Of a DNA stretch of 64,000 bases, positions 23,538 through 63,603 are shown piece by piece. The DNA lies in the NCBI GenBank assembly GCA_035402645.1, contig DAONDQ010000004.1, positions 293 to 64,292 of the forward strand. Reading direction: 5' to 3'. Source of the stretch: Candidatus Cloacimonadota bacterium (GTDB lineage: Bacteria > Cloacimonadota > Cloacimonadia > Cloacimonadales > DAONDQ01). The translations under genes and the position numbers were made by a program. The stretch's first letter is position 1; every line of letters starts with the position of its first letter. The notes beneath the pieces were generated by a model. That model did no database searches, was not told where the DNA came from, and saw only the letters and a program-made list of their open reading frames with translations.

Positions 23538-24044
23538 TCAATGTTCGTGCATCCCATTGATGTGTAAATCAAACAACTCCAAAGATGTTTGGCATTTACT
23601 ACCAAAGATATAGAAAATATCAAAATCATTATACAAGTAATCGATTGCCAAATCCGTATATATTTTCCCCATTGGATCATATATGGATTTGCTTCGCCAA
23701 TCCCAAGCGATAGCATGATGACCATTCGTTAGTACAATGTCATGATGCTCAAAGTACATCTTCACACTATAGAATGGCTTGAATGATTTAATATCTTTCA
23801 TGTCATGGCTTATATCCAAACTCTTAGGCAACTCCATCACAGTAAAACCCCTTGAGTTTGCTAACCAAATCAATTCAGCAGAATGGAAGCCACGATAGCA
23901 CCGAGGAACTTCTAGGTTGGTAAAAGCTATCTCAGTGCCATCGTGACCTAAAATCTTAAACACGTGTTCTACATCTACGCCCATGCACATAGCAAAGGCA
24001 GTAGCAAGACAACTGGCTCGATTAGGTTGTTTAATCAGATTCAT
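23538..24044 (-). CDS. papain-fold cysteine peptidase (C39-like)
   Basis: QPNRASCLATAFAMCMG has Gln six residues before the candidate catalytic Cys. GHHAIAWD and IYDP are candidate His and Asp residues. The start is moved to 24044 (ATGA overlap with the upstream stop). Confidence 0.45.
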   Translation of the reverse strand: MNLIKQPNRASCLATAFAMCMGVDVEHVFKILGHDGTEIAFTNLEVPRCYRGFHSAELIWLANSRGFTVMELPKSLDISHDMKDIKSFKPFYSVKMYFEHHDIVLTNGHHAIAWDWRSKSIYDPMGKIYTDLAIDYLYNDFDIFYIFGSKCQTSLELFDLHINGMHEH

Positions 24045-32663: not shown

Positions 32664-33665
32664 TTATGCGATCTTGATTCCGACGGAAGCGGCATCCTTC
32701 TTAGCCTGCTCTGCTTCCTTCTGAAGTTTGGCAATCTTTGCCTCGGCGTTCTCGTACTTCTTCTGAACGGTTTCCTTGATACGCCTTTCCTTCGCTTCGG
32801 CGAGAGCCTTCTTACGGGCTTCGTACTTGGCGAGAGATTCGGCAATCGCGGCTTTGTCCATTTTCAGAACCCAGCGAATCGCAAGTGCGAATCCATCGGC
32901 AGGAGTACCGGCGTTTTCCTCTTTGCAGAGTTTCGCGCCAATAGCCGGTGATTCATATTCACCCTTGATTTCGGCAGGTTTCCTCATGACAGGAATTGCC
33001 ACGAATTCTTCCGGCTGACCGTCCTTGCCTTCGCGACGTGCCTTGTCGAGTTCCTTCTTCCTTGATTCAACAAGGGGAACGAATTCAACGGGAGGAAGAG
33101 TCATGGCTCTGTCAAGGAAAGCTGCGATTTCGCCTTCGGGTAGCTTGCTGAGTGCATACGCATTACCGAGTTTGATTTCACCGCTATCAACGGAGTCCTG
33201 TACTTCCTTGGGAAGAGTAAGGAGACCAAAGCGTTCTGAAATCCATGCCGTTGATTTGCAAATCTTCTGAGCGAGATCGGCAACGGTCATGAGAGGGTAG
33301 ACGGAAAGCATACGCTTGAGACCTTTGGCGTACTCAACGGGCTTTGTGTCGACCTTCTGAATATTCGCAACAATCTGAGTTTCAAGAGCTTCTGCCTCTG
33401 AAACATCGAGGATCTGAACAGGTATCTCAATCAAACCTGCCCTCTTTGCGCCTGTATAGCGATGGAGACCATCAACGATACAGAATTTCCCCGCATTTTC
33501 GCCGTCGCGGAGTTCACGGACGCTAATGGGATTTACGATTCCCTTAGCCTTAATCGATTCTGCAATCTCCTGGAACTGTTCTGATTCCTCATTTACTGAG
33601 CGCAGAGCGACGGGAGATTCGACGATCTGATCCAGTTTGAGTGTCGCAAGTTTTGACATTTGCAA
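32664..33665 (-). CDS. ParB/Srx-fold N-terminal domain protein (paralogue 3) with a Lys/Ala/Glu-rich C-terminal tail
   Basis: CIVDGLHRYTGAKRAGLIEIPVQIL (ParB box II-like) is followed by an HTH-like MTVADLAQKICKSTAWISERF. This is the first gene of the minus-strand block. Confidence 0.65.
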   Translation of the reverse strand: MQMSKLATLKLDQIVESPVALRSVNEESEQFQEIAESIKAKGIVNPISVRELRDGENAGKFCIVDGLHRYTGAKRAGLIEIPVQILDVSEAEALETQIVANIQKVDTKPVEYAKGLKRMLSVYPLMTVADLAQKICKSTAWISERFGLLTLPKEVQDSVDSGEIKLGNAYALSKLPEGEIAAFLDRAMTLPPVEFVPLVESRKKELDKARREGKDGQPEEFVAIPVMRKPAEIKGEYESPAIGAKLCKEENAGTPADGFALAIRWVLKMDKAAIAESLAKYEARKKALAEAKERRIKETVQKKYENAEAKIAKLQKEAEQAKKDAASVGIKIA

Positions 33666-39012: not shown

Positions 39013-39281
39013 ACACATACTATGCTAGTTATAATCTGTGTTTTATTTGTTTAAAGAATAATATACCATTCACGCATTGTAGTGGCAATTTTAAATTTGA
39101 AAATAATACTTTAATCAGTTATGGTGAGGTTATAGGTATACCTCAAATCGATGGAACATATCAAATCATTGGAGAACCATTTAGTCCAGTACAAGGTAAA
39201 CACTACGCAGTAATACGTAGATATAACGATTATGTGAAAGGAAAGGTGGAACGTGAGAATTTGTCTAATTGTGAAGGATGA
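38991..39281 (+). CDS. hypothetical protein (96 aa)
   Basis: In-operon ORF. Confidence 0.4.
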   Translation: MDKIQNVNTYYASYNLCFICLKNNIPFTHCSGNFKFENNTLISYGEVIGIPQIDGTYQIIGEPFSPVQGKHYAVIRRYNDYVKGKVERENLSNCEG

Positions 39282-39918
39282 GTATCCATGTTATTTAGAT
39301 GAATGGTTGAATCATCACGAGAAACTCGGAAAGATAACCATCTACAATAATGGTAGGGATATTGACGTGATTCCTCAATTTGGATTAGAAGTAATACCAT
39401 TTCCAGGAAATCAAGTCCAGTTGAACGCATACAATCATATGGCTAAAAGATACCCAAATGATTATATTCTCTTTATTGATTCAGATGAATTCTTCTTCAG
39501 CAACTATGATGTAGAGCAACTCGAAGCCGAATGTTGTATGCATGGTGCGTTAGCTTTCAACTGGCAAATGTATGGCAGTAGCGGATTGTTGAAGCACGAC
39601 AATGGCTCGCAACTTACCAAATTCACCAAGAAATTACCCGAATACCACGTTGTTAATCGTCAGTTCAAGACACTGGTGCAGGGAAAGAACGTGATGCATT
39701 TCAGCAATCCACATGAAGCTAAGTTGCGTACAGGCGCGTACAATCGTCCTACTAAGTTAGGTTGGACTCAAGATGTAGATATAACGTTAGGTTATATAAA
39801 TCATTATTTCCTTCGCAGTAGGGAGGAGTTTGAGCTAAAAATTAAGAAGGGTAGAGCCGATACAACAAGTAAGAGAACTATTGGAGAGTTCTTAGCAATA
39901 AATAGGGAGTGCGTATGA
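39253..39918 (+). CDS. glycosyltransferase (GT2-like, Glyco_tranf_2_4 / GT92-type pattern)
   Basis: VKDEYPCYLDEWLNHHEKLG, the DxD-type motif FIDSDEFF, NWQMYGSSG and INHYFLRSREEF. It has a GTG start after AAAGGTGG. Confidence 0.6.
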   Translation: MRICLIVKDEYPCYLDEWLNHHEKLGKITIYNNGRDIDVIPQFGLEVIPFPGNQVQLNAYNHMAKRYPNDYILFIDSDEFFFSNYDVEQLEAECCMHGALAFNWQMYGSSGLLKHDNGSQLTKFTKKLPEYHVVNRQFKTLVQGKNVMHFSNPHEAKLRTGAYNRPTKLGWTQDVDITLGYINHYFLRSREEFELKIKKGRADTTSKRTIGEFLAINRECV

Positions 39919-40216: not shown

Positions 40217-40787
40217 ATCAGATTACACAGTCTGTGCTATCGACACTGAAACGAGTGGACTTGATCCACGATTGCATGAGGTACTATCCTTATGCATCAT
40301 GCCTGTCAATGACAAGTTCGAAGATTTAGGACTCACTCTGAACTTGCGTATAAGGGCAAATAATCCTGTCGATGCCAAAGCCATAGCTATCAACAAACTT
40401 GATCCAACTGTCGGGATTGCGAAATCCGAAGCATGGAAGACCATACGTGAATGGCGAAGGAAGAATCTAATCACCAAGATAGTTCCTCTTGGACACAATA
40501 TCTCTTTTGATTTGATGTTCCTAAAGACGCTAATGCCCAACCCCACAGACTTCCAAGACATTTTCCACTATCGCTTTAAGGATAGTATGATTATGGCACA
40601 GATAATTAATGATGTGCATTTCGCAAGGAAGAGCGTTAAGTTCTTCAACGCAGTAGGCTTGGAAAAGGTGTCAGAACGATTGGGCATCCAAAATATGGTA
40701 GCACATTCCGCAGAGAGTGATGCTCGCACATCACTACTCTGCTATAAGAAAATGCTAGGTATGCTTGCTATTGTTGAGCCAACCTAA
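40203..40787 (+). CDS. DEDDh 3'-5' exonuclease (DnaQ-like)
   Basis: Exo I is AIDTETSGLD, Exo II GHNISFDLMFL and Exo III HSAESDARTS. The likely start is the ATG at 40209, after AAGGAG. Confidence 0.8.
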   Translation: MTMNESDYTVCAIDTETSGLDPRLHEVLSLCIMPVNDKFEDLGLTLNLRIRANNPVDAKAIAINKLDPTVGIAKSEAWKTIREWRRKNLITKIVPLGHNISFDLMFLKTLMPNPTDFQDIFHYRFKDSMIMAQIINDVHFARKSVKFFNAVGLEKVSERLGIQNMVAHSAESDARTSLLCYKKMLGMLAIVEPT

Positions 40788-42171
40788 ATTCGTGATCGAA
40801 TCCCGTCAGTATAGGTGTGAGCGTACGTTTCTGCTCCCCTATATTGGCGCGGAGTTTCTGTTCCTTAGTTCGTATGTCATAGTTAAGACTCTTCGCGTAC
40901 TCTATATTCCCATTGATGAAAGAATCACATCCATAGTAGATTATCTTCTTACATCCCCACAATTTAGCTATATGAGTAGCCATACATATTGATTGAGGAT
41001 GGAAATTATTAGGAATATTGAAGTCCTCCATATTATACGTGAACACGCTAGGGTGTCGCGTATACCATGCGCTAGTAATATAAGGCAGTAACATCGTTCC
41101 TCTCTTACTCCAACATATCTCTCCAAGTTGGCTATCCTGTTGAACACAATACATATCATTCTTGATGTTCAACGATTCAATTTTATGTATAGCTTGATTT
41201 AACCCAATGATTGGGCAATCCGGATCGAAATGCTTTTCTTTCAGATTATCCATACTTGGACCTTTACCAACTATGTAACAGACCTTGTCTTTGTATCTAT
41301 CCTTAGTATCACCTATTATCTTCCGTTTCTCAATAGGGTGCAGTACCCACGCTAAAGGCTCTACACGTTTGGCAAAGCGATCAAGAATCACTTCGATCTG
41401 CTTATTAGGCTTAGGTAGTATGAGTCTACCTAGTGGATCGCGTCTACAATTCTTAACTTCCTTTGGATACTCAATCGTTTCCGGACGTATATTCAGTAGA
41501 TCGAAATACACGTTTGCATCAGTACCGAGGAACTGTTTAAGGATTGAGTAATCCGGATCGTTAGCAAATGTACTGGTATGACCGGACCCGATGCCACCGC
41601 GACCGGGTAACCCTTTCATACCAATACATAACTTTTCTTGGCTATCATCAAGCCAGTGTCTACCTTGAGCCATCTTCCATAACTCTATGTCGATGAACTT
41701 CAAGTCCTTCTCACAGAGAGATTCAAGGTAGGGAAGATTGTTAGGACGTATGCCTGTCTGACACAGTGAAGCGTGTCGAGTGTTATTATGACAGTGCCAC
41801 CAACGATACTGTACATTATAGTAGATGGCATTAGGCTGACCTACTATATGATTCGTCTTCAACCAGTCATGCATCTTCTCAACGTATGTTGGCTTATAGT
41901 AATCATCGTCTTCCCAAAAGATAATCATATCGTTCTTTATTAAAGGAAGTGCAGTACGCAAGTTGAGTCCCAGAGTATGCGGAGGGTCGTCCGGTCGGGG
42001 AACTCTTCTCACGTACTGCACTTTTGAACAAGGTTGAGTAGGCGTTTTGCCGTCATCAATAACTATCCACTGATCCACTTTCATGGTCTGTCGTTCCATC
42101 CACTGTTCACAAATCTTAAATACTACATGACGGTCGCCCGTACACGTTATAGCTGTAATTTTCTCACTCAT
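40768..42171 (-). CDS. two-domain glycosyltransferase-like protein (N-terminal DxD GT-like, C-terminal Maf/DUF115-like)
   Basis: The N-terminus carries WIVIDDGKTP and FWEDDDYY. The C-terminus carries YIVGKGPSMDNL...IIGLNQA...YCVQQD...IIYYGCDS, which resembles the GxGPS motif of motility-accessory-factor type sugar transferases. Confidence 0.45.
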   Translation of the reverse strand: MSEKITAITCTGDRHVVFKICEQWMERQTMKVDQWIVIDDGKTPTQPCSKVQYVRRVPRPDDPPHTLGLNLRTALPLIKNDMIIFWEDDDYYKPTYVEKMHDWLKTNHIVGQPNAIYYNVQYRWWHCHNNTRHASLCQTGIRPNNLPYLESLCEKDLKFIDIELWKMAQGRHWLDDSQEKLCIGMKGLPGRGGIGSGHTSTFANDPDYSILKQFLGTDANVYFDLLNIRPETIEYPKEVKNCRRDPLGRLILPKPNKQIEVILDRFAKRVEPLAWVLHPIEKRKIIGDTKDRYKDKVCYIVGKGPSMDNLKEKHFDPDCPIIGLNQAIHKIESLNIKNDMYCVQQDSQLGEICWSKRGTMLLPYITSAWYTRHPSVFTYNMEDFNIPNNFHPQSICMATHIAKLWGCKKIIYYGCDSFINGNIEYAKSLNYDIRTKEQKLRANIGEQKRTLTPILTGFDHEFRLAQQ

Positions 42172-51375: not shown

Positions 51376-54300
51376 TTATCTTGCGTAAGGTCTACTTCCT
51401 GTATTCAAGTTTCTCACATTATAGTAGGGTTGGTCGCGTGTTGCACCATTTATGCCTTGACCATTAACTGACACGTTATTCTGTCCTCTACTTGCACCCT
51501 TCTCAATCACTTGAGCTGTTTTAACTGCTAGTGTTTCACCTCCCATTGTAACTGTTACATCAAAGACATTAGGTGCATTATTCTTCTGATTCTCCTTACT
51601 GATGCCACCCTGCCAATTCTGTATACCTCTGTTGGCTTCCCAATCAGTGCGATATGCTTGCGAGTTCATCTGCTTGATGCTTGCTTCTCTCAACTTAGCA
51701 TAAGTATCTCCAACTGCTGACATATCACCAAAGGTATCACCACCCATATCAGCTAGTCCACCCATGCCCTGCATACCCTTAGTCCCAAACATATTATATT
51801 TCCAATTTCCCGGCTTTACACCTTTGAAAGACGTTAAATCTTCTGCAGCCTGTCTAGGAGGATTAGCCAATTTATCCAAGTCTTTATTAGTCTGATCAGT
51901 TTTAGCATTAGCTATCATAATCTGATTAACTATCTCATTCAACGGAGTAGCTATCCAATCCGCAGGATTAGCTAGTGGATCTTGAACATTGTCCAGTACG
52001 GTCTTAACTGCTTCCGGTGATTTAGCAATCGGAGTAACAGTTGTAGGAACTGGTGCATACTTCTTAATCTGATCCTCCATTCCTGCTTTAGCTGCGTAAG
52101 CTGCTGATTTCCTAGTATCAATCTCTACTATCTTAGCTTTCTTTTCTTCCGGTGTTAATGTTGTAGATTTATTTATATCTATTCTCTGCTTGATTAATTC
52201 AAAGATTCTACCATTCAATGCATTTATAGCATCTGTGAATTCCTTGTATCTCTCTGTATCTAGTTTTGTTTCAGCAGTAGTTTTAGCAACCGGCTTTGAT
52301 TCTACAATCTTCTTAGCCTGTTCCGGAGTTGGAGCATTAACAGTTGGAGGAACAACTGGTGCGTTCTTAGATAAGGCTTCATCAAACAACTTAGAGAAAT
52401 CAAGTCCAGGAACATTATTTTGGAATGTCTTATTAACAGTATTCTCGAACGTCGTAGTCCTAGTTTTCATCTCGGTGAGTTTAACAGGATTCTTTAACGT
52501 TTCATTAAATCCTTTCATGCCTTCAGTTACGTTCTTCAATTCTACATTTAACTTATTAAAACTTTCAGTTGCCTTTTCTGATTCTTCACGGCTCTTCATA
52601 GTCGTAACTAGAACACGTTTCATCTCAAATAGATTATTTTGAAGTTCAGTAGGTAGACCGCCCTTATCTGTTTTAGTTCCTGCCGTTACAATATCAACTT
52701 GTTTTATTGCTGCTCTGATTTGTTCAGCACTGATCTTGTTAATATCCTCATTCATTGTTTCAAACAATTTAGGGAAACCATTAAAAGCCTCGGCAATAGG
52801 CTTAGCTAAATCCTCTGTCCATAAAGCATTAGTTTTCTCAGTAGCTACTCTCTTGGCTTCTGCTTCCGGTAAAGTAGTTTTAAGAACATTGAACAGTTCA
52901 TCAAACATAGCTTGCCTAGAAAGATTGAAACTCTCGCCCATAACTTTAGGCAACAGTTTAAATAACTGACTTGATGCATCTACGCCTTTCTGCTGAGGAA
53001 CAAGCATCTTGGATGCTTCTTTGTCTGCTTTAGATTGCAGTGCTTTTTCCTGCTCTTTAAGCACATCACGTTGTGCCTCTATGAATTTAATCATATCCTG
53101 CTTCTCTTGCAGTTTCTGCATACTCTTTAACTGATTCATAATAACCGCATTCAATTTATCCATTTCATTGATTTGGCTATCAGAAACAGAGTTCATAGTT
53201 TCAATCAATTTCTTATTCTCTTGAACTCCACTGAAAGATTTACCAAACTCAGTTTTCAGCTGAAGTGTAAGTTCCGGTGATAATCCGGCTTCACCTATTA
53301 CTTTCTGAGCGTCTTTATACAGTTTGGCAAGTTCTTCCGTAGCCTTAGGCATATTCTTAGCAGAAGTAGAAATATTACCCATCTTGGTCTTAATTTCTTC
53401 TAAGTCATCTTTAGCCTTCTGATTGCGTTGACGTTCTTCTTCAAGCATATCTAACTGTTTCTTCTTTTCCGCCAGTACAATCTGCTCCTTCTTCACACGT
53501 TCGTCAATCAAGCGACCGTGGTCACGTATAACTTCTCCGGTACTCTTACCTATTGTTTCGTATTTATCGCTAAGTGCAATCAACTCATCCCAATACTTAG
53601 CGAATTCTGTCATGTCCCTACGATCAAATGCTGATAATGCGCCTTTCTTAACTGCTGCATACATCGTGTCGAGAGCGTTCTTTCTCTCGTTAATTTGAGC
53701 AAGTTCATAACTTGTTATCTCATTCTGTGTGTCCTTTGAGAATTTCTTCTGCTTAGTGAAAGCATCACCATTTACATCAACACCTTTAACTGCCGAACCA
53801 GTAGCAGTAGTAGTCTTACGCTTGAATAAGTCACCCTGTCCAAGTACACGCAAGTCTTGGGTGTTAGCAAACTTTGCACCGGCTTTGACTAAATCAAGAT
53901 AACGTTGATATGTCCTATTGAGTTTGATTTGGGCATCATTTGTTACACCTATCTTATCCACCAAGCCAGTGTAATAGGATAATGTCGAAGAACCGGATTG
54001 CATACCGGCTATACTAGCAGTAAGACTCTTAATAGTGTTACTTGTTTCAGTGATTCTTGAATCAAGGAAATTAATTAACTTAGCTATGGAGTTGATTGAA
54101 CCACTAACATAGTCCGTTATCAATTTAACATTATTAGATATAGTCGCATTAAGTGCATCAACTTCACTATTCAATCCGGCTATCTTAACGGCAACGCCTT
54201 GTTCCATCACTTGTCTTGATGCTTCTGCTTCTTTCTTAAAAGCATTAACACGTTCTTCTATCTGTGCAATAGTTTTAGCGTGTCGTTCAGCTAACTGTTT

Positions 54301-56685
54301 TTCATATACCTTATCCAGTGAAAGCAATCCTTCATACTCTGCATTCACCTTTATAACCCATTTCCATGCTTCCATGTAAGCGTACACTAATGCGGTCGCG
54401 CCAACAAATATAGCACCACCAATCAAAGGATTGAACTTAGCCATAGCTGCGGTATTAGCTTCGGTAGCTACTGCATTTTTAGTCTTGGCAATAGTATTAG
54501 CTTCCAATGCAAGAGTCTGTTGAGCCAATTCATAATTTACAATATTGACTCTAACTCGCCAACCAATATACAATGCAGAAAGGAACTCTAAGACTCGTCC
54601 GGCTGCTTCAATAGCACCAACGAAATCATTAACAGGCTTAATGCCTAATGTCTTAGAAATCTCGAGTCCTTTTAATCCATCATCTACATCACTGATGAAT
54701 CCCTTAATAATATTCAATGCGCCTTCACCTAAAGTCTGAACAAAGTAATTATGAACTTTGTTCATCTCCATTTGAAGTAACTTACCAGTTGATTCAATAG
54801 AGATGTGAGTAGCTTTAAAATACTGTGATTGCTTAGTGTTATACTGTTCAAGTATACTATCGAACTTTGCCATCTGATCGCCAGTAAGAGATATGATACC
54901 TTGTATGGGACGTATATCTCCAAACAATCTAGCAAGCCAAGGAGTACCTTTACCGGCTTTAGATGCTTCTTCATTTATCTGTCTAATAAGATTGGGCAAT
55001 CCCATAGCGGATATTGCAGCTTCGCCCGAATCATAACCAAGTTGCTTGAAATACTTACCGAGTTCCTCAGTTGGTTTCAGCATCTTCATCATGATATTTC
55101 TAATCTGTGTCATAGCAACATCGACCTTCTTACCTTGCAAGGTCATGATTGCCATCATAGCACCTAACTCGTCCTCTTTCACTCCGAGTTCTGCAGCAGT
55201 TACGGCTACGTTACCATAACTGTTAGCAATATCACTTGCTCTCAATCGACCAATTTCAATAGTCTTGAATAGTGATGCAGCCGAATCATTAGTTTGATCT
55301 GATGTCTTACCAAAAGCATTAAGTGAAGAAGATAAAAGATTAACGGCATCGGCAGTTGATGAAACAGTAGTACGTGCGAAGACCATACTGTCTGCCATAA
55401 ATCTAGTGGCATTAGCCCCGAAAGCTACTTGGTTTGAAATAGTCTGATAAATACCTTCGGCAACATCTGTCATGCTCATGCCATACACATCAGATAATCT
55501 TCTTATCTCAGCTTCCCAAGTTCCAAAAGGCAGTGGTGCTTCTTGTCCAATAGTACGTATTTCTGAAATCTTAACTTGCAGTGTAGCCATCTCTTTGAGT
55601 CCTGTTCGGGTGGCATTGATTATATCATACACTGCTTTATGAATTGATTGCGTAAGTAAGAAACGTCCCCAATATGCCCACTGTGCTCGCGCTCTAGCAA
55701 CGCCCTCTGTATGTGTAGCAAGTCCTGCATCTACTCGTTTCAAAGTGGTTGCTGAATCAACCATAGCCATCTGTGCGCCCTTAATCGCATCACGTTCTCT
55801 GTTAGTGGCAATAGTTTGTGCCGACAGTTTTGCGTTCTTAGCAGTAAAACCCCTACCAACAGTATCAGTAGCGACCTTCATCTCCATATACTGTTTGTTT
55901 AAGCCACCGACCGCAACTGCTTCACCCGCCCACTGACCTGCACCCGTTGATACTAAATTGTACTTAGTAGGTGTTGGCTTACCCATTACAGGTACAGTAC
56001 CCATAGTTACATTTCTAGCAGCCATATCAGCAGATAACTTGGCTTGGTAATCAAGTTGCATCTGAGCAAATTTAGCTTGACGAGCTATTTCTGCTGCTTC
56101 TGCTGCTTTCTGTTTCTCTGCCTTTATAGCTAAGAAGGAATTAAGTATAGCTAAATTACGACTCTGAAATGATTCTTCTTCTGAAAGTAACTGATTGTGC
56201 AATCGCTTAGCGTTTTCAAATCTATTTAACGCGGCAATCTTTTCAGCGTTAATCATCTCTTGCTCATTCAATGTGAATAATTTATCATATGGAGTAGCAG
56301 TTTCAGTTCCCTTAGGTCTAACCGCAGGTCCGGGTGATGATATTCCTGCACCACCTTTGGCAAGTGCGTCAATACTAGCATTTAGTTTTGCTACTTCTCT
56401 ATCTACAACCTTATTAAGACTTACAAACTTACCACCTATTCCGCGGAATCGGGTATCTAGAATCTTTTCGCCGTTAGCCAGTGTGCGTTCAAATACTTCT
56501 GCTTTTATATTAAATAACTTCTCAAAATCATCTGCTGCATACTTAACTTTCTCGCCTACTTTAGCAGTAGCATTACCAAACGCATCAAGTTCAAGTGTAA
56601 CCTTTGCTATTTTAGCAGAGAATCCACCATCCTCGAAGTCTATTGCTCCGATTGTATCATCATATACTGGCTTAAAGATATTCAT
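51376..56685 (-). CDS. tape measure protein
   Basis: 1769 aa, largely alpha-helical and coiled-coil, with central hydrophobic segments (LIGGAIFVGATALVYAYMEAW). It lies downstream of the G/GT chaperone. The N-terminus is MNIFKPVYDD. Confidence 0.85.
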   Translation of the reverse strand: MNIFKPVYDDTIGAIDFEDGGFSAKIAKVTLELDAFGNATAKVGEKVKYAADDFEKLFNIKAEVFERTLANGEKILDTRFRGIGGKFVSLNKVVDREVAKLNASIDALAKGGAGISSPGPAVRPKGTETATPYDKLFTLNEQEMINAEKIAALNRFENAKRLHNQLLSEEESFQSRNLAILNSFLAIKAEKQKAAEAAEIARQAKFAQMQLDYQAKLSADMAARNVTMGTVPVMGKPTPTKYNLVSTGAGQWAGEAVAVGGLNKQYMEMKVATDTVGRGFTAKNAKLSAQTIATNRERDAIKGAQMAMVDSATTLKRVDAGLATHTEGVARARAQWAYWGRFLLTQSIHKAVYDIINATRTGLKEMATLQVKISEIRTIGQEAPLPFGTWEAEIRRLSDVYGMSMTDVAEGIYQTISNQVAFGANATRFMADSMVFARTTVSSTADAVNLLSSSLNAFGKTSDQTNDSAASLFKTIEIGRLRASDIANSYGNVAVTAAELGVKEDELGAMMAIMTLQGKKVDVAMTQIRNIMMKMLKPTEELGKYFKQLGYDSGEAAISAMGLPNLIRQINEEASKAGKGTPWLARLFGDIRPIQGIISLTGDQMAKFDSILEQYNTKQSQYFKATHISIESTGKLLQMEMNKVHNYFVQTLGEGALNIIKGFISDVDDGLKGLEISKTLGIKPVNDFVGAIEAAGRVLEFLSALYIGWRVRVNIVNYELAQQTLALEANTIAKTKNAVATEANTAAMAKFNPLIGGAIFVGATALVYAYMEAWKWVIKVNAEYEGLLSLDKVYEKQLAERHAKTIAQIEERVNAFKKEAEASRQVMEQGVAVKIAGLNSEVDALNATISNNVKLITDYVSGSINSIAKLINFLDSRITETSNTIKSLTASIAGMQSGSSTLSYYTGLVDKIGVTNDAQIKLNRTYQRYLDLVKAGAKFANTQDLRVLGQGDLFKRKTTTATGSAVKGVDVNGDAFTKQKKFSKDTQNEITSYELAQINERKNALDTMYAAVKKGALSAFDRRDMTEFAKYWDELIALSDKYETIGKSTGEVIRDHGRLIDERVKKEQIVLAEKKKQLDMLEEERQRNQKAKDDLEEIKTKMGNISTSAKNMPKATEELAKLYKDAQKVIGEAGLSPELTLQLKTEFGKSFSGVQENKKLIETMNSVSDSQINEMDKLNAVIMNQLKSMQKLQEKQDMIKFIEAQRDVLKEQEKALQSKADKEASKMLVPQQKGVDASSQLFKLLPKVMGESFNLSRQAMFDELFNVLKTTLPEAEAKRVATEKTNALWTEDLAKPIAEAFNGFPKLFETMNEDINKISAEQIRAAIKQVDIVTAGTKTDKGGLPTELQNNLFEMKRVLVTTMKSREESEKATESFNKLNVELKNVTEGMKGFNETLKNPVKLTEMKTRTTTFENTVNKTFQNNVPGLDFSKLFDEALSKNAPVVPPTVNAPTPEQAKKIVESKPVAKTTAETKLDTERYKEFTDAINALNGRIFELIKQRIDINKSTTLTPEEKKAKIVEIDTRKSAAYAAKAGMEDQIKKYAPVPTTVTPIAKSPEAVKTVLDNVQDPLANPADWIATPLNEIVNQIMIANAKTDQTNKDLDKLANPPRQAAEDLTSFKGVKPGNWKYNMFGTKGMQGMGGLADMGGDTFGDMSAVGDTYAKLREASIKQMNSQAYRTDWEANRGIQNWQGGISKENQKNNAPNVFDVTVTMGGETLAVKTAQVIEKGASRGQNNVSVNGQGINGATRDQPYYNVRNLNTGSRPYAR

Positions 56686-57267
56686 TTACGCACTCCTGTA
56701 TGACATCTTATAATATTTGTTTAGTTTAGGAATATACTTTTTCTTATTAGCTTGGATATAAGCACTGAACGCTTTACGCCCTATATCCATACTGCGCCAC
56801 TTATTTTCCCAATACAGATAATGTCTTACAGAGGGGAAAAATAGAAAACTTATTTTTGATCCAATAATCTGAAACATAAACAATCCTCTCTCTGCACCGG
56901 CTTCGGGAGTCCTAATGTATGTTCCCCTAATTCCTGGAAACATTGAACCTTTCCTCCAATACTTAGCCTTATCAGCATCTTTTCTAGTTCTCTGAATAGC
57001 ACCACTGACATTGATTGAAGCAGGAGAATCTTTTAATCCTAAATATTCGTTTGCATCAGAAACTCCACCTTCGAAAGTCTCGACTTTTCCTAGGAAAGTT
57101 GACCTAGCCATTCCAGTATCAACATGAACTCGGTTAGAAGCAGCTAGAGCAAACGCCCTAGCTGCTTTCTTTGTTAATTCCTTCAAGCCATTCATATAGT
57201 CAGATGTGAATTTTTCCTTATCGAAGGAAATTGTCTTAAATCTAACTTTGAACTTTACAGATGGCAT
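56686..57267 (-). CDS. HK97 gp10-like tail/neck component
   Basis: The start is moved to the ATG at 57267 (MPSVKFKV). The motif VHVDTGMARSTF resembles the vDTGnLrnS signature of the HK97 gp10 family. Its position between the chaperone and the TMP is atypical. Confidence 0.4.
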   Translation of the reverse strand: MPSVKFKVRFKTISFDKEKFTSDYMNGLKELTKKAARAFALAASNRVHVDTGMARSTFLGKVETFEGGVSDANEYLGLKDSPASINVSGAIQRTRKDADKAKYWRKGSMFPGIRGTYIRTPEAGAERGLFMFQIIGSKISFLFFPSVRHYLYWENKWRSMDIGRKAFSAYIQANKKKYIPKLNKYYKMSYRSA

Positions 57268-57886
57268 GATTCTTCGTATTCCCTTATGTTCTCGTAAGCA
57301 ATGTATTTTGCTTGAGACCAACAATCCAATTCATAGAAGTCCTTGGGTTGAATATGCCATCTTTCACAGATGCGCCAAATAACATATTCACCAGTTCGAC
57401 CACTTGGGTAAAGAGGACTTAGACCTTTACCTGTTGCGTAGCTAAAAAACGTTTCTTAGCCTCTTCAACTTTCTGATCGTCCAATCCGTTGGCTTCAAGT
57501 ACACCATTGATTAAACGTCCTATTTCGATATCGCTCAGCCCTGCGTTCTTCAATTCGGTTTCGTAGTTGAGCCAAGTCGATGAATCGTCAATCTTAACTG
57601 TTTCCCATTCTAGGTTCTCAGTGGCTGACAGTGATTGGATAATCATGTAAGCCGTTCTCTTACGGGTGAAATCTCCAAGTTTCGTAAGATACTTTTCATC
57701 ATTGAGAACTGCTACTGCATCTTCGCCGGGTTTCTGCATCATAGGTGGCTTAGGTACAGGACACAGTGCGTTAAAAGTTTCAAAATTAAGAACTGCTTTA
57801 GCTTTGAAATAGATATCACCGCTTGCGCGTATGACAGGAATCACTACTTCGCTCGGACCATCAATCTTCTTACCATTAACTTTCAT
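57255..57886 (-). CDS. tail assembly chaperone G-T fusion made by a programmed -1 frameshift
   Basis: The slippery heptamer T_TTT_TTA lies at 57449-57443 on the minus strand, 8 codons before the G stop. The -1 frame is open for 62 codons (SYATGKGLSPLYPSGRTGEYVIWRICERWHIQPKDFYELDCW...) through the apparent intergenic gap, to a TAA at 57257-57255. Confidence 0.65.
57419..57886 (-). CDS. tail assembly chaperone (gpG analogue)
   Basis: 155 aa between the tail tube and TMP genes. It carries the slippery site near its 3' end. Confidence 0.65.
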   Translation of the reverse strand: MKVNGKKIDGPSEVVIPVIRASGDIYFKAKAVLNFETFNALCPVPKPPMMQKPGEDAVAVLNDEKYLTKLGDFTRKRTAYMIIQSLSATENLEWETVKIDDSSTWLNYETELKNAGLSDIEIGRLINGVLEANGLDDQKVEEAKKRFLATQQVKV

Positions 57887-57919
57887 CTCGATACCCTCCG
57901 CAATTTATTGTTAGGAAAG

Positions 57920-57951
57920 GTGGCGGAATGATTTTGCAATCACTCCGCCAC
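57920..57951 (-). terminator. strong hairpin after the tail tube gene (attenuator/stabiliser)
   Basis: GTGGCGGAATGATT-TTGC-AATCACTCCGCCAC forms 13 of 14 base pairs. It has no clear U-tract and belongs to the same TGATT-N4-AATCA family. Confidence 0.5.
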
Positions 57952-57962
57952 TTGTTGCATTG

Positions 57963-58469
57963 TTACGTTGTTGATGTGACGCGAGTTATCGTCGCTTCCG
58001 TGATGTTGCACTTGCCGGTAACTGAAATCTGACCTGCTTTAAGGTCATAGTTCAGTTCCTCATAACGGAAGTCAGAAAGAAGAATAACTTCTTTCTTTGA
58101 GCCGTCAGCGCAATCCGGATCGATAACGATTTCCAAATCAAGCGAATAGGGTTCGCAAGGATCGGAAGAAGCCGTTACCCATGCCGAAGCATTACCACGT
58201 TTCTTGAGAACATCCACCGGTGTCGGAGGAAGCCCTGTGTCGGCTTTCAGCCACTCCCACAGGAAATCAAGAGTTACATCAACTGGAACCTGATCACCAT
58301 CGCGAACTGTGTCAAGGAGTCCCTTGTCCAGTTCGTAGGTCCTCGGTTTTGATTCCTTGAAGGTGATATTTCCGTCACCGATCTTCACAAGAAGAACGTT
58401 AGGTGTCGGAGTAGTACCATCCTTGAAGGCAATCGTTGATTTTTTAATATCAACTTTCATTTCAATCAC
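57963..58469 (-). CDS. major tail tube protein
   Basis: 168 aa, immediately upstream of the chaperone/TMP genes and followed by a strong hairpin. The pattern IGDGNITFKESKPRTYELDKGLLDTVRDGDQVPVDV is typical of siphovirus tube proteins. Confidence 0.55.
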   Translation of the reverse strand: MIEMKVDIKKSTIAFKDGTTPTPNVLLVKIGDGNITFKESKPRTYELDKGLLDTVRDGDQVPVDVTLDFLWEWLKADTGLPPTPVDVLKKRGNASAWVTASSDPCEPYSLDLEIVIDPDCADGSKKEVILLSDFRYEELNYDLKAGQISVTGKCNITEATITRVTSTT

Positions 58470-58933
58470 TCCTCGTTAATTGTGAGTTCCATTGAATAGC
58501 GACCTTGTACTTCGGAAGTATTCACATCTATTGAAGGTGCTTGCCGTCCAAACCTGTTGGTCTCGACAATTCCCTGCAAGGATATGCATCCCACTAATAC
58601 ATTACGATCGTCTCCAATTTCGTCACCGAATTTATAAATACGAATCGACGATTCAAACATCTTTGCCACAAGACCGCAAGTCTTAATTTCACGATATGCA
58701 TCTTTGTCATTATACAAAGATTGAACAAGTACGTTAATGACGATATCATAGCCGTAATAGTTTTTAGCGATGTCGCGTCTATCCGGACCATTCATTCGCA
58801 ATTCAAAATAGTCTTGCGACTTATTCGTATTGCGCTTCTGACCTTCAAGATACATCACAAGTGAACCTTTACGGTCACTGAAATGCTTGGCAACGGACGC
58901 CAAAATCCATTTAGGCATTGATTCCAACATCAT
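58466..58933 (-). CDS. neck / tail terminator candidate
   Basis: 155 aa with a 4-nt overlap with the tube gene. The call is by position only. Confidence 0.4.
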   Translation of the reverse strand: MMLESMPKWILASVAKHFSDRKGSLVMYLEGQKRNTNKSQDYFELRMNGPDRRDIAKNYYGYDIVINVLVQSLYNDKDAYREIKTCGLVAKMFESSIRIYKFGDEIGDDRNVLVGCISLQGIVETNRFGRQAPSIDVNTSEVQGRYSMELTINEE

Positions 58934-59393
58934 TAAGTCCTGCGTTTTGTGTTAAAGATTGAGAAATCACGTTATCAGCTTCTGTGCCTTTCACGTTTAC
59001 TATCGTAACAAGCCACAGAGTCGTATTCTCATAGTTCTCGCAGTTGGCGATAGTATACCGCTTTCCATTGATTACTACTCGATCATTTGCGTCGAATTCG
59101 CCACGCCAATCCTTAGGGAAGTTCTTCTGTTCAACCATCAGTAGTCGGGTATTGGTATCGTAGTATCCGCCATAGGCGAATTGACCATTAAATACCTTTA
59201 GTACCCTATCCATTTTGATTGGTAGGAGAACTGCCTTCTTGACCTTTGTGTCGGCATAGACGTTGGTCATCTTGCCAGTTTCGACATTGATTGTCTCACT
59301 GGCAAGATGAAGCCAATTTACTACTACTGCGTGGTTTTTACGCAGGTCGTAGTATGATTTACGAATCATGTGTTTGTTATAACAGGTAATCAT
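58911..59393 (-). CDS. head closure / head-tail joining protein candidate
   Basis: 160 aa directly after the capsid gene. The C-terminal DRVVINGKRYTIANCENYENTTLWLV resembles the head-tail joining family ending. Confidence 0.45.
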   Translation of the reverse strand: MITCYNKHMIRKSYYDLRKNHAVVVNWLHLASETINVETGKMTNVYADTKVKKAVLLPIKMDRVLKVFNGQFAYGGYYDTNTRLLMVEQKNFPKDWRGEFDANDRVVINGKRYTIANCENYENTTLWLVTIVNVKGTEADNVISQSLTQNAGLNDVGINA

Positions 59394-59395
59394 GA

Positions 59396-60793
59396 TTAAG
59401 CAAGCAGTACTGCTCCCTGTGCTGCATCGAGAACCGCGACACCCATCAGCATGTCGACCGTTACAAGATGTCCCTGTTTCACGCCATCATAAGTGATGGT
59501 AACGCGCAGTGAAAGTCCGTTATCTTCCTGTACGGAAGCAACCGCGAGGTTACCCATAGGAAGAGCGAGAGGACGATTCACGAGAGCGAGTGCATCACGT
59601 GTGAACGCGAAGTTGTAAGAACCGCCAGGTCCGACTCCGAGGATTGCGTCATCAGCGAGCGCACCTGCAAGAGGACGGTTGAGCAGAACATCAGCTTCAG
59701 TACCAGTGTTGTTAGATATTTCCATGATGGTGTATATCTCACCGGCTGCCGAGCGAAGTATCTGTCCGATCTGCGGAGAAGATGTGAATCCATCAATATG
59801 GATTTCCTTCACATATCCGTCTGCATAGCCTGCGCCAAGGTCAACGCGAACAGGTGTGTAGATGACAATGTCAGCATTGTCGACCACTGCATCACGAAGT
59901 CCGGAAACAAGCACGATCTGAGTCGGTGTTGCGCCACCAACAGTGCTCGATACAACGTAAGGATACATTGATCCTTCAATCGTAAGGAACGAACCTGCAA
60001 GTATTGCAGCACTGAAACCGTCGACCACAAGTGTGGTAGAACCGATTGCGTAACCGCTTGCGTTGTTGATTTCACCGCCGAGAACTCTCTGCGTCAGACC
60101 AGTCTGAACGTAAGGTGTGTTCTGTCCCATGAAGAAATCAAATCCCAGCTTGCGCCCGAGAGATGCTTCACGAAGAGCAGTACCTTGATCGCCAACCTTG
60201 TCAGCAGCAGTAAAGAGTTCGAGACCGAGAAGCGTGGCTTCCGTTGCGGTCGTGGTAAGGAAATTCCTTCCCATAAGAGGAACTTTGTTGTCGTTCATCT
60301 TCTTTCTGATTGAAAGAATGTTGGAAACGGAATTGTTACCAGTGAGTCCGTCAAGGTTACCGGCGTTGTTTGCTATGAACTGAGGGATAAATCCCGCAAT
60401 AGCCTTGTCTGCACCGGAAGCGATACTCTGAATCGCAGGGCGCAGGAAGTAAGCAACGAGGTCCTTGAAAGCCATCGTCATCTGAGAATCACGGATAAGG
60501 AACGTGGTGTGAAGGTGCTGATTCAGAGCGACAGGCTGAGTGGTCGCATTGGCGTTCTGAACAGTAACGTCATCATTTGTTCCCTTACGTTTCGCGGTGA
60601 AAGCTGCGGGCTTGTCAATATTCACTACCTGTCCGTAATCTGCGATTTCGTTCTTGTAGTTACGATTGACAAGGTTACCGAGCACCATATTTTCCTGCAG
60701 AAGAACAAGACCTTCGAGTGCCCACTTCTCGGGAATCAGAGCATCGACGGAGTTGTCATAAACAGGACGAAAAATCTTCAAAAACTTTTTCAT
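59396..60793 (-). CDS. major capsid protein
   Basis: 465 aa with a 4-nt overlap with the scaffold gene stop and a strong SD (AAGGAGAAAGG). It is followed by the neck and tail genes. The N-terminus is MKKFLKIFRPVYDN. Confidence 0.7.
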   Translation of the reverse strand: MKKFLKIFRPVYDNSVDALIPEKWALEGLVLLQENMVLGNLVNRNYKNEIADYGQVVNIDKPAAFTAKRKGTNDDVTVQNANATTQPVALNQHLHTTFLIRDSQMTMAFKDLVAYFLRPAIQSIASGADKAIAGFIPQFIANNAGNLDGLTGNNSVSNILSIRKKMNDNKVPLMGRNFLTTTATEATLLGLELFTAADKVGDQGTALREASLGRKLGFDFFMGQNTPYVQTGLTQRVLGGEINNASGYAIGSTTLVVDGFSAAILAGSFLTIEGSMYPYVVSSTVGGATPTQIVLVSGLRDAVVDNADIVIYTPVRVDLGAGYADGYVKEIHIDGFTSSPQIGQILRSAAGEIYTIMEISNNTGTEADVLLNRPLAGALADDAILGVGPGGSYNFAFTRDALALVNRPLALPMGNLAVASVQEDNGLSLRVTITYDGVKQGHLVTVDMLMGVAVLDAAQGAVLLA

Positions 60794-61587
60794 AATTCGC
60801 CTTTCTCCTTCATTTTCTTTCTATGTTCTTTGTATTCGGTCGGCGTCATCTTGGAGAAATCAACTGGCTTCCCGCCTTTTCCGTTATTTCCTCCCATACC
60901 TTCCGATACACCGTTTTTAAACAAATTTCCATAGACATTGGAAAGTTCCTTCATTCTCTTCACTACCTCGTTAGAGGGAAGTTCAAGCTGAATTGGCTTT
61001 CCACTCTTGGAATCGACGTCATTGAATTTGACGACTACATCGTAATTGCCGGATGGCTTTCCCGATTCGTCCATCATTTCAACAACACGCGCATTAGGAG
61101 ATAGTATAGCTACAACCTGTTGCGGGGCAAATGCCTCATTAGTCATGGCTGCATCCATGAGATTTCTAATGATTGTCGAATCTTCAAAACGCTTCTGCCA
61201 AGTCTTAGAAAGGCTAAGGGCGTCATCACGTTCCTTAGTCAATTTCTCTTCGAGCTTCTTGCGCTCTCTATTGGCAATTTCCTCTTTGGACATCGTTGCC
61301 TTGCGAAGTTCTTCCAACTGCTTCTCGTACTCTTCCTTCTCAGAAGCGGTCATCGTTACTTTCGTCTTGGCTTCTTCAAGCTGCTGAATCAATTTTGCTT
61401 TCGCATCTTTGTCAGCTGCTCTTTCTCTTGCTACGATGGCATTGAGTTCTTCCTGTGTAAACGTCTTACCTTTTGCTTTCTCGGCTGCATCGGCTGCTGC
61501 TTTGTCAGCTGCTGCTTTTGCTGCTGCATCGGCATTAGGATCGTCGTACACTGGTTTGAAAACCCGATTCCACAATCTCGTCTTCAT
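60790..61587 (-). CDS. scaffolding protein
   Basis: Ala/Lys/Glu-rich coiled coil immediately upstream of the capsid gene. The start is moved to the ATG at 61587 (MKTRLWNRVFKPVYDD), which is preceded by GAAGGAG. Confidence 0.6.
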   Translation of the reverse strand: MKTRLWNRVFKPVYDDPNADAAAKAAADKAAADAAEKAKGKTFTQEELNAIVARERAADKDAKAKLIQQLEEAKTKVTMTASEKEEYEKQLEELRKATMSKEEIANRERKKLEEKLTKERDDALSLSKTWQKRFEDSTIIRNLMDAAMTNEAFAPQQVVAILSPNARVVEMMDESGKPSGNYDVVVKFNDVDSKSGKPIQLELPSNEVVKRMKELSNVYGNLFKNGVSEGMGGNNGKGGKPVDFSKMTPTEYKEHRKKMKEKGEL

Positions 61588-61615
61588 AATACTCCTTCTA
61601 CGCACCCTTCGTCTA

Positions 61616-62064: not shown

Positions 62065-62235
62065 TTATCTATGCCTCCTACGTCCTGCTGCAGCCCATTT
62101 AGCCATACGTTTTGCTCCGTATTTCTTTCTGCCAATCCAAGCTGCAAGTGCTTTTGGATTCTTAACTCCTTTACGAGATAGTTTGCGCGTTAGCGCTTTG
62201 AACCTACCTCCCGATCCTAGTCTTGCTTTAGCCAT
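62065..62235 (-). CDS. highly basic 56-aa protein (below the ORF-track cutoff)
   Basis: MAKARLGSGGRFKALTRKLSRKGVKNPKALAAWIGRKKYGAKRMAKWAAAGRRRHR. The stop is 2 nt before the connector gene start. Confidence 0.5.
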   Translation of the reverse strand: MAKARLGSGGRFKALTRKLSRKGVKNPKALAAWIGRKKYGAKRMAKWAAAGRRRHR

Positions 62236-62291: not shown

Positions 62292-62705
62292 TTATTTAGT
62301 TACTACACCGGCAGGTGTTACACTAACCGGCTTACTACTTGTTGCTTCAATCACCTTAGCAAGAGCCTCTAGACCTTCCTTAGCCTTGTCCCAGTTAAAT
62401 CCTTCGGGTATAGTCAAATATACTTTCTTGCCAGTAGCAAAAATTGCTTTGATTGAACCAGTAGGGTTCTCTTGCGTGGGCGGTTCAGCCACCAATTCCA
62501 CGAATGTGCCATCAGTAGTAACCAAAACAAGTTTTTCTTTTAAATTCATGCTAATCATTCCTATGGCATCGCCCTTGAAATTCTGAATAACAACAGGCTT
62601 TCCATCTTTGTCAAATGTCGTTACAGACATAGAGCTGCAACCGCTAAGAGTAATGATAGCGCTAAGACACAGAACCAAAATAATTCCCATTTTTCCATTC
62701 ATCAT
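62292..62705 (-). CDS. lipoprotein
   Basis: The signal peptide with lipobox is MGIILVLCLSAIITLSGC|SS. Confidence 0.7.
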   Translation of the reverse strand: MMNGKMGIILVLCLSAIITLSGCSSMSVTTFDKDGKPVVIQNFKGDAIGMISMNLKEKLVLVTTDGTFVELVAEPPTQENPTGSIKAIFATGKKVYLTIPEGFNWDKAKEGLEALAKVIEATSSKPVSVTPAGVVTK

Positions 62706-63100
62706 TTACCTCCAAATCTGTTAATTAAGAATTCTATTATTACGGTTGTAATCGCAATTACTGCCGTCCATTTTAAAGTTTTTGATTCCTTAATCTCAAC
62801 CTCAACGCCTTCAATTTTCTTATCTTGATTGTCTATTTTGATAGTATGCTCAGCTATCAATCTAGAATTAGTATTTGATTTGTCAAAAAGCTGATCTCTA
62901 TTCTTTTTTATATCTTGGATGTTGTCATTTACAACCGCAAGTAACTTGTTAGTTTCCTGCATTTCCTTGACCATGTCTTTCTGATTGTTCTCAAATGAAT
63001 TCAATCTGTCAGCATGTAATTTGCACTGTTGTTCACGTGCCTTAAATGCCTTTTCAACTGACTCATCTACTATCTTATGTATAGTCTGAGTATCTGTCAT
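62702..63100 (-). CDS. coiled-coil protein with a C-terminal membrane anchor
   Basis: 132 aa. A heptad-rich body is followed by WTAVIAITTVIIEFLINRF at the C-terminus. It forms an ATGA overlap with the lipoprotein gene. Confidence 0.5.
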   Translation of the reverse strand: MTDTQTIHKIVDESVEKAFKAREQQCKLHADRLNSFENNQKDMVKEMQETNKLLAVVNDNIQDIKKNRDQLFDKSNTNSRLIAEHTIKIDNQDKKIEGVEVEIKESKTLKWTAVIAITTVIIEFLINRFGGK

Positions 63101-63603
63101 GGGAGTTCCTTTACTGCTACAAAAGTTCGATTCTTTTCAATATTTGATTTATTGTGTTTTAAATAAGCCGTCCACCCCCACGTTCCAACGGCTTCTTTAA
63201 AAGAGAATATATCAAACTTAGTCGCTTTACATTCCTTCATACCAATATATAAAACCTCATCGTTGATTGCGCGATCAAATATCTCTGCACCATATAGACC
63301 ATCGTGTCCAGTTGCAGGAGCAGCGTACCTGTCATCCATCGGAGGATATAGCCACCAAATGGCTTTAGGTGTGCTTGCCAAATCAAACTTGAAACCTTCC
63401 TTAATTGTTACTTCAATCTTCTTACCGTTACTGAACTCGATTACGAATTTGAACTCTTTTTCAAGATTGTAGATGGTCTTCCGGAAGATTAACCAGTAAC
63501 CCTCCGTGTGATCATTAGAAATATGAACACGTTTACCGTCGGCAAAGTGAACATGTTTCACATGAACGCCATCTACAATCTTGATTAGAGGTTCTCTTTT
63601 CAT
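63097..63603 (-). CDS. hypothetical protein, DUF1353-like by recollection
   Basis: FKFDLASTPKAIWWLYPP...PATGHDGLYG resembles the D-x-S-x-P ... HD-x-x-Y pattern. Not checked. Confidence 0.3.
   Translation of the reverse strand: MKREPLIKIVDGVHVKHVHFADGKRVHISNDHTEGYWLIFRKTIYNLEKEFKFVIEFSNGKKIEVTIKEGFKFDLASTPKAIWWLYPPMDDRYAAPATGHDGLYGAEIFDRAINDEVLYIGMKECKATKFDIFSFKEAVGTWGWTAYLKHNKSNIEKNRTFVAVKELP

Follow-up and report, generated by a model that had tools for sequence, protein, structure and literature searches.

In bacteriophage T4, a short N-terminal capsid-targeting signal is removed after use, being cut at L/I-x-E inside the prohead by the dedicated S-family protease gp21, whose gene is part of the head module; targeting signals of this type act only on head-internal proteins, and the gp175 system of phage phiKZ is comparable. 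C39 enzymes, the double-glycine leader peptidases of bacteriocins, remove short N-terminal leaders in a sequence-specific manner. In staphylococcal phage 80alpha, the coat (gp47) and scaffold (gp46) proteins carry L27-like leaders of 13-14 residues that the host protease Prp cuts at F-A, and the Prp motif is also found on the major tail protein of staphylococcal phage phi13 (PMC5744158). The lineages with Prp and the long form of L27 are Firmicutes, Fusobacteria and Synergistetes, along with a part of the Thermotogae and Tenericutes (PMC9405229). Here we describe an N-terminal leader of a different sequence in a stretch of DNA of 64,000 nucleotides (hereafter the window), which covers essentially all of a phage genome of about 64.5 kb. 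The peptide F-[KR]-P-[VI]-Y stands close to the N-terminus of five of its proteins, namely the tape measure, the major capsid (coat) protein, the scaffold, a 104-residue protein and a PD-(D/E)XK nuclease. Literature searches gave no description of a leader system of such a kind outside the papers on Prp, and nothing relevant for the motif string itself.

As in 80alpha, the leader is short and stands at the extreme N-terminus of coat and scaffold (13-14 residues there, a median of 13 here), an aromatic residue is followed by a small one at the junction (F-A there, [Y/F]-[A/D/G] here), the motif is occasionally found on non-homologous proteins including a major tail protein, and the coat has the HK97 fold and depends on a scaffolding protein. 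80alpha likewise encodes no prohead protease (PMC5744158, PMC9405229). Unlike in 80alpha, the sequence is unrelated to (L/I)(N/D)LQ(F/L)F-A(S/H)KK, and the leader is not L27-like when judged by that published consensus rather than by the L27 of the phage's own host. It is hypervariable between related phages and covaries within genomes, whereas the leader of 80alpha is fixed by a host protein; it is also carried by tape measure, portal and a nuclease of the replication module; and on the scaffold it is followed by a long low-complexity tether. The bins in which these phages were found, which are weak evidence of the host, lie outside the phyla reported to have Prp, and the sole candidate enzyme, which may cleave the leader here, is phage-encoded and of papain fold, in a clan other than that of Prp (MEROPS C108). 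The original prediction had set the motif apart from the 80alpha leader, which is borne out by its sequence, its hypervariability, the likely hosts and its use on a nuclease; the architecture, however, is shared with 80alpha, and the marking of a tail protein had already been reported.

Five leader copies in one phage genome

Translated in all six frames, the window shows the pattern F[KR]P[VI]Y at exactly five places, every one of them on the minus strand (Table 1). In 5/5 copies it lies 4-17 residues from the ATG, and upstream of each ATG there is a Shine-Dalgarno sequence (AGGAG, GAAGGAG, AGAAGGAG, AAGAGG and AAAGGAG). Block-shuffled window sequence gave a mean of 0.145 matches and a maximum of 2, and the number expected in N-terminal windows from the proteome composition is 0.0012, with a probability of about 2e-17 for five or more. 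The sharing of this peptide by the N-termini of five proteins, as originally predicted, is thus well outside what composition would give. The codons of the five copies differ at synonymous sites in the sets that had been listed with the prediction, which argues against recent gene conversion, and the motif is kept in the orthologues of all five proteins in a sister phage (L221; 61.6 kb, coat 77% identical to the window coat). Conservation is therefore at the level of the peptide and not of the nucleotides, as had been proposed.

Table 1. Coordinates of the leader-bearing proteins and of other features in the window. A slash marks the junction suggested by leaderless orthologues; SD, Shine-Dalgarno sequence.
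Feature	Leader or start	Leader position	Motif position	Gene position	Strand	Basis
Tape measure	MNIFKPVY/DD	56662-56685	56662-56676	51376-56685	-	AGGAG + ATG
Major capsid	MKKFLKIFRPVY/DNSVDALIPE	60758-60793	60758-60772	59396-60793	-	SD + ATG
Scaffold	MKTRLWNRVFKPVY/DD	61546-61587	61546-61560	60790-61587	-	SD + ATG
104-residue protein	MKKVFKPVY/DGLPRPYDEG	7447-7473	7447-7461	7159-7473	-	SD + ATG
PD-(D/E)XK nuclease	23-residue add-on MNYRTHDGKTLIFKPIY/GEVPPL	16833-16901	16851-16865	15732-16901	-	SD + ATG
Putative major tail (tube) protein	leaderless here (MKVDIKK...)			57963-58460	-	gene order
Portal	leaderless here (MGKLIDIRHPEY)			7470-9230	-	leader-bearing in relatives
Stand-alone papain-fold cysteine peptidase, 168 residues	(Q6, C12, H110, D123)			23538-24044	-	fold, conserved residues
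DUF1353 protein				63097-63603	-	probable lysis cassette
Coiled-coil protein with C-terminal transmembrane segment				62702-63100	-	probable lysis cassette
Lipoprotein, LSGC lipobox				62292-62705	-	probable lysis cassette

The names under which these proteins had been predicted hold. The tape measure matches PF10145 and the PHROG tape-measure families, and the coat matches PF11651 (P22 coat) and phrog_283. The scaffold is identified by weak PHROG scaffold matches together with its gene position; its start is most likely the ATG at 61587 and not the GTG at 61605, and its leader is followed by an Ala/Lys/Asp-rich linker. In the nuclease family, G161-K-P-D164 and D184-x-K186 are invariant and form the PD...(D/E)xK motif; PF12705 (PDDEXK_1) is matched by 3/11 family members (best E 3.7e-6), the window protein itself being below threshold. 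Its add-on precedes the canonical start RRPKFLSPTS of a protein of 389 residues. The 104-residue protein gave no family match, and its gene comes next downstream of the portal gene, whose stop it overlaps.

Leaders are also found on the orthologues of these proteins. Those of the tape measure read MKIFKPIY, then EN, in L221; MKFYTPRY, then DD, in L222; and ..KNRKWYG, then GEE, in L118, while the orthologue in L028, a 70.7-kb relative, is without a leader. In the sister phage the 104-residue protein begins MKIFKPVY, then AGLPRPYDEG, and the nuclease MKNIYKPRVFNPVY, then GLRRPKFLSPTS, its junction being followed by GLRRPKF. The portal, leaderless in the window, bears a leader in the sister phage (MKVFKPVY, then AEAKIVSTIRHPEY), in L004-L009 and in L129, and a protein of 273 residues in L006 and L007 also bears the local form. 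The tail tube assignment is putative and rests on gene order, between the head-completion genes and two genes in chaperone position upstream of the tape measure; comparison of the protein with PDB and PHROG profiles gave no match. Its orthologues in more than 15 lineages have their own genome's leader fused to AQIDLK.

Dialects, junction and distribution of the leader

Coat leaders and scaffold N-termini from 51 non-redundant genomes were compared by the score of their best match over 6 residues. The median score was 24 for pairs from the same genome and 12 for pairs from different genomes. A score of at least 24 was reached by 53% of own-genome pairs and by 4.4% of foreign pairs (Mann-Whitney p 4e-17, a value that is indicative only because phylogeny links the sequences). 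The coat and scaffold of a given genome thus share a dialect: FVPVYD/FKPVYD, IWTPVFD/VWTPVFD, SYQIKWIG/SYQIKWVG, NRLWYG/SRLWYG, FRPYYE/FRPYYE, WFGVYE/WFGVYE, SNSFYD/SLSFYD, FVACYE/FATCYE and KWINVH/VWVTVH are such pairs, and the range of dialects across genomes extends over forms as unlike as FRPVYD, IWTPVF and WINVH. Where a third or fourth protein of a genome is tagged, it uses the local dialect. The sister phage has FKP[VI]Y or FNPVY on the 104-residue protein, scaffold, coat, tape measure, nuclease and portal, and in a 67% relative the scaffold and coat have moved to KLY-x-AV[YF]D and the tape measure to KFYTPRYD. On the scaffold, the leader is nearly always followed by a low-complexity stretch rich in acidic residues, Gly, Pro and Ala and then by a conserved 'TFTQEQVN' core.

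The position of the junction can be read from orthologues that lack the leader. Leaderless tube proteins start M-AQIDFK, M-AAIDLK or MK-VDIK, and in leader-bearing ones a leader ending in VY, PVF, WYG or PVH is directly fused to AQIDLK. The coat of L154 is leaderless and has ANDLDAFVPE after its Met, where others have a leader ending in TVY and then ANDNDAFIPE. The L001 orthologue of the 104-residue protein starts MPRPRPYDD behind its own ribosome-binding site, and the window protein has VYDG and then LPRPYDEG. Nuclease homologues in 47 viral loci nearly all start MR[KT]P[KE]YLSPTS, without a leader, and the window protein has its 23-residue extension. These comparisons place the leader exactly where the initiator Met would otherwise be. 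In L154 the leader is missing jointly from coat, scaffold and tube, all with good ribosome-binding sites; its scaffold has AAGGAG + ATG and is without the linker too. The leaderless orthologues suggest a junction of [Y/F] followed by [A/D/G/E], and a cut at this point would regenerate the N-terminus that they have after removal of Met.

Homologues of the coat amount to at least 712 clusters in a set of 5.8 billion proteins, and at least 547 relatives were found in IMG/VR. When 117 homologues were aligned on the N-arm (…D-A-[FL]-[IV]-P-E), a Tyr or Phe stood nine residues before the Pro in 93 of them, and the profile of the leader was [K/R]-x-[F/W]-x-[P/T/L]-V-[Y/F], junction, [A/D/E]-N-D. Counted from Met to the aromatic residue, the leaders of coat homologues had a median of 13 residues, and those of the window phage have about 8-17. 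More distant coats, among them those of Bacillota and Actinomycetota prophages and of cultured Vibrio phages, begin straight at the N-arm, and there is no leader on the closest coat from a cultured phage (Vibrio SSP002); the leader is thus an addition to a canonical coat. In relatives from metagenome-assembled genomes (MAGs) of Bacillota (L190-L195), the coat is leaderless and only the scaffold has a leader, of the type …GLPVF followed by EKDTGGG and a Gly-rich tether.

Three observations on individual relatives may be added. The scaffolds of L190-L195, from genes at about 9.2-10.0 kb immediately upstream of the coat, begin with a hydrophobic peptide that closes with an aromatic and an acidic residue, MLNLLPRRYGLPVF, then EKDTGGGTGG.... 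L025 (GCA_034680565.1, JAXOUH010033543.1, 202.5 kb, 45% GC) has the FRPVYE dialect on coat and scaffold, and a downstream gene of at least 2593 residues with a pectate-lyase-like domain; its size and content indicate that this type of head module occurs in very different genome backgrounds. In L028, the public call of the scaffold (9192-10001) starts at a GTG inside the leader (VYDND...) and loses MRASYKCFVP. Gene callers thus mis-start some leader genes at the junction, and automated annotation can hide leaders.

The carriers are always coat plus scaffold and, sporadically, the tape measure, the putative tube, a small head-module protein and the portal. When the replication-module proteins of 78 related loci were searched without bias for N-termini in common, none were found except those of paralogues, from which the leader system appears to be essentially morphogenetic, the leader of the nuclease being, by comparison of homologues, a lineage-specific yet conserved extension. 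The leader is a real and strongly selected signal. The search of related phages that had been proposed with the original prediction finds the motif at N-termini there, including those of orthologues of all five proteins, and the proposal of a functional N-terminal signal agrees with this conservation, with the genome-specific covariation, with the modular gain and loss and with the exact junction.

Possible readers of the leader

Whether the leader is recognised and removed in the manner of 80alpha, under a new and fast-evolving code, is by analogy an evenly balanced question, and of the explanations considered we prefer this one. Each of the five motifs would then represent one portable N-terminal leader that ends in an aromatic residue and that a large uncultured clade of tailed phages would attach to its virion-assembly proteins and, here, also to a nuclease. 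One sequence-specific partner would read all copies within a genome, and with a single reader the copies would co-evolve into genome-specific dialects. The leader would be cut endoproteolytically at the [Y/F] to [A/D/G/E] junction, giving the mature N-terminus of the leaderless orthologue, with DNSVDALIPEK, DDPNADAAAK and DDTIGAIDFEDGGFSAK as predicted mature starts. Before its removal it may act as a recognition or docking tag, like the Prp-cleaved leader of 80alpha. The tape measure, a certain tail protein (PF10145), is tagged in four lineages, which argues for a cytoplasmic rather than a capsid-interior reader. This reader is probably not a host Prp, and the best candidate, a tentative one, would be the phage's own papain-fold peptidase.

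Searches with Pfam and PHROGs over essentially all open reading frames of the window gave no prohead protease (ClpP, S78 or S80 type), no Prp (PF04327) and, besides the papain-fold enzyme, no other recognisable peptidase. Across 80 sequences of this peptidase, C12 and H110 do not vary and D123 hardly does (>=90% conserved); there is a Q-x5-C motif, Q6 is conserved within the subfamily, and the motifs of the family are QPNxxSC...GHDG[ST]E...HAxAW...YDP. The AlphaFold2 (AF2) model from 80 sequences has a predicted local distance difference test (pLDDT) value of 93.8. Its best Foldseek matches are the C39 domain of PCAT1, YopQ, staphopain, Josephin and papain, all of them weak (TM-score about 0.45-0.5, E about 1e-3); an earlier model (4 sequences, pLDDT 68.8) also matched LahT150 and ComA. 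None of the 80 family members matches a Pfam peptidase model at E<=0.1, or any Pfam family at all, and the open reading frame has no sequence match in PDB. An exhaustive profile search gave 1187 representative clusters at 50% identity, of about 150 residues and stand-alone, so that on sequence grounds the peptidase belongs to a large undescribed family. No cultured phage carrying it was found, and its 'ASCL' subfamily is rare in IMG/VR.

In six genomes (the window, and contigs of 61.6, 70.7, 99.9, 112 and 64 kb) the peptidase is encoded on one contig together with a leader-bearing coat, and it is a core gene of the leader-using phages. The order of genes in 78 viral loci (L029-L106) is fixed, namely SNF2, ParB, PolA, VRR-NUC, peptidase, ligase and PD-(D/E)XK nuclease. 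A functional coupling of the peptidase to the adjacent VRR-NUC gene was considered and dropped, as the spacing varies from overlapping to 7.7 kb. Compared with the C39 leader peptidases PCAT1, LahT150 and ComA, the candidate has the same fold class and the same order of Q...C...H...D at similar spacing. Unlike them, it has no Pfam membership, stands alone in a replication module and is not fused to an ABC exporter; its substrates would be cytoplasmic phage proteins; and the junctions are not of the Gly-Gly type but mostly an aromatic followed by an acidic or small residue, although a few dialects end in G. From these sequence features, it is possible rather than probable that the peptidase reads the leader. 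The wider proposal of a phage-encoded papain-fold leader peptidase that co-evolves with genome-specific tags, independently of host Prp, is slightly more doubtful still.

Several points weigh against a leader that is removed by this enzyme. The fold matches are weak, as given above. The peptidase could serve replication or counter-defence, since in 78/78 loci it is part of a replication module that is collinear and includes PolA, VRR-NUC and ligase, and its co-occurrence with the leader may reflect shared ancestry only. The whole leader clade is uncultured. Assembly of 80alpha requires the scaffold leader but not its cleavage (PMC5744158). In the Bacillota-MAG relatives the leader is on the scaffold only, which suggests that the leader arose there and that a scaffold-intrinsic function may be ancestral. 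Finally, every scaffold leader is joined to a long flexible linker, and the joint loss of both in L154 suggests that the leader works while it is still tethered.

The last of these points would also be expected if the leader were a linear motif that is retained and binds a common chaperone or assembly factor of phage or host. The bound factor would coordinate the folding or assembly of self-polymerising virion proteins, and proteolysis would be absent or incidental. The linker that tethers scaffold leaders has 15-60 acidic, Gly- and Pro-rich residues, a leader on the scaffold only, as in the Bacillota-MAG relatives, suggests a scaffold-intrinsic role, the 80alpha scaffold leader is essential even when uncleavable and its authors proposed a common chaperone (PMC5744158), and any single binding partner explains the covariation equally well. 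However, the leader replaces the initiator Met exactly and keeps the Ala of the leaderless tube and coat mature N-termini, which is the prediction of a removable propeptide; no candidate chaperone covaries with the leader or was identified; and a hydrophobic extension of 13 residues on the coat N-arm and the tube N-terminus would have to fit the assembled lattice. We regard a retained docking tag as a minor but serious possibility.

Cleavage of the leader by a host protease, either Prp or an analogue, with the motif mimicking an essential host protein such as L27, appears unlikely. The architecture and the residues around the junction are indeed Prp-like (an aromatic then a small residue, about 13 residues, coat plus scaffold and an occasional tail protein), the phage encodes no prohead protease of its own, and differences between dialects could track differences between hosts. 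But no dialect resembles the (L/I)(N/D)LQ(F/L)F-A consensus, and the dialects vary far beyond what a conserved housekeeping site would allow. The bins are Cloacimonadota for the window and Rhodoferax and Dehalococcoidales MAGs for close relatives, where Prp and long L27 are unreported (PMC9405229), although binning is weak evidence of the host. The Bacillota-MAG relatives, which would be expected to have Prp, carry scaffold leaders of the PVF-[DE] type and not of the L27 type.

A leader that docks proteins inside the assembling HK97-fold shell, with the nuclease and the 104-residue protein as packaged cargo, is still less probable. Like the capsid-targeting sequence of T4, the leader is one short N-terminal signal on several unrelated proteins and is linked to head assembly; coat, scaffold, portal and head-module protein are all procapsid components, and a packaged nuclease would make biological sense. 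The scaffold peptide with its flexible linker also resembles the cargo-loading peptides of encapsulins, in which a short tag and a Gly/Pro/Ala/acidic linker lead to the interior of an HK97-fold shell (on the scaffold here). Encapsulin tags, however, are usually C-terminal, have another motif and are absent from the shell protein and from tail proteins. Unlike in T4 and the phiKZ gp175 system, the restriction to the prohead interior does not hold, for the coat itself bears the leader, four lineages have it on the tape measure and more than 15 on the putative tube; moreover, there is no LxE site of the T4 type at the junction, and no open reading frame of the head module matches gp21-like or other protease families. 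Chance, an annotation artefact or a nucleotide-level element such as a translational enhancer has a negligible probability, given the value of about 2e-17, the synonymous codon differences, for which the nucleotide-level element was rejected, and the fact that the peptide rather than the DNA is kept in orthologues and covaries across the 51 genomes. Nothing was found in favour of these explanations, the five genes being all on one strand and presumably well expressed.

Genome context and significance

The genome has a GC content of 40.5%, nearly all of its genes are on the minus strand, and no tRNAs were found in the window. Its coat is 100% identical to NCBI HPT70884.1, from a contig of 64,564 bp that is binned as 'Candidatus Cloacimonadota bacterium'. 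The morphogenesis set consists of a gpA-type large terminase, portal, Ad1 adaptor, scaffold, P22-type coat (PF11651), head-completion and tail genes, the 1769-residue tape measure (PF10145) and large fibre or spike proteins. The replication module has an SNF2 helicase, ParB-like proteins, a family-A DNA polymerase, a VRR-NUC-like nuclease, a ligase, a primase-like DUF5906 protein, a Dam-type methylase and a DEDDh exonuclease. A close cultured relative was not found; the best coat match has 24% identity (Vibrio SSP002 group) and the best polymerase match 26%.

Several other genes of the window were noted. Downstream of the 104-residue gene, a protein of 961 residues (4262-7147, minus strand) has three internal repeats of one module, with the motifs SGN[LM][ND][VI]ARM[PT].xG.W ... 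and GP[ST]A.PTTDYQ..NK.YVD. It is probably a fibre, at an unusual site between the portal and the remaining head genes, and its sole match is a weak one to a PHROG minor-tail family. Within the morphogenesis block there is a probable lysis cassette (62292-63603, minus strand; Table 1), which L001 and L221 have in the same arrangement. Between its lipoprotein gene and the head-tail adaptor is an extremely basic protein of 56 residues (62065-62235, minus strand; MAKARLGSGGRFKALTRKLSRKGVKNPKALAAWIGRKKYGAKRMAKWAAAGRRRHR), which is kept in the sister phage (L221, 8529-8753) and may be a DNA-binding or internal virion protein. Two glycosyltransferase-family-2-like genes (39253-39918, plus strand, and 40768-42171, minus strand), one of them fused to an MptE-like domain, hint that DNA, or virion or host surface components, may be glycosylated. 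Proteins with a ParB-N domain are encoded by three separate genes (13442-14359, plus strand; 28311-29213 and 32664-33665, minus strand), and that at 28311-29213 stands in the conserved replication-module order in 66/78 related loci. Small SEC-C motif (PF02810) and DUF3846 proteins in the early/middle region (19266-19574 and 20138-20452, minus strand) are kept in the sister phage (L223).

A leader shared by coat and scaffold and read by an enzyme other than a prohead protease has hitherto been essentially a staphylococcal or Firmicutes system tied to L27. The same logic, with a different and hypervariable code, is now seen in a very large uncultured clade whose likely hosts are not reported to have Prp. 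The mature N-termini of several virion proteins are precisely predicted, and the peptidase is a candidate for a new family whose putative substrate motif is defined. The covarying dialects, the modular gain and loss and the leaderless member of the clade offer a natural experiment on why assembly proteins carry leaders. If a phage-encoded peptidase does read the leader, the tags would mark whichever proteins the phage licenses for assembly or activation (coat, scaffold, tail, portal and nuclease). Hundreds to thousands of uncultured phages would then have a self-contained, rapidly diversifying code of protease and substrate, which would amount to a natural library of orthogonal sequence-specific proteases, with many pairs of protease and site for biotechnology.

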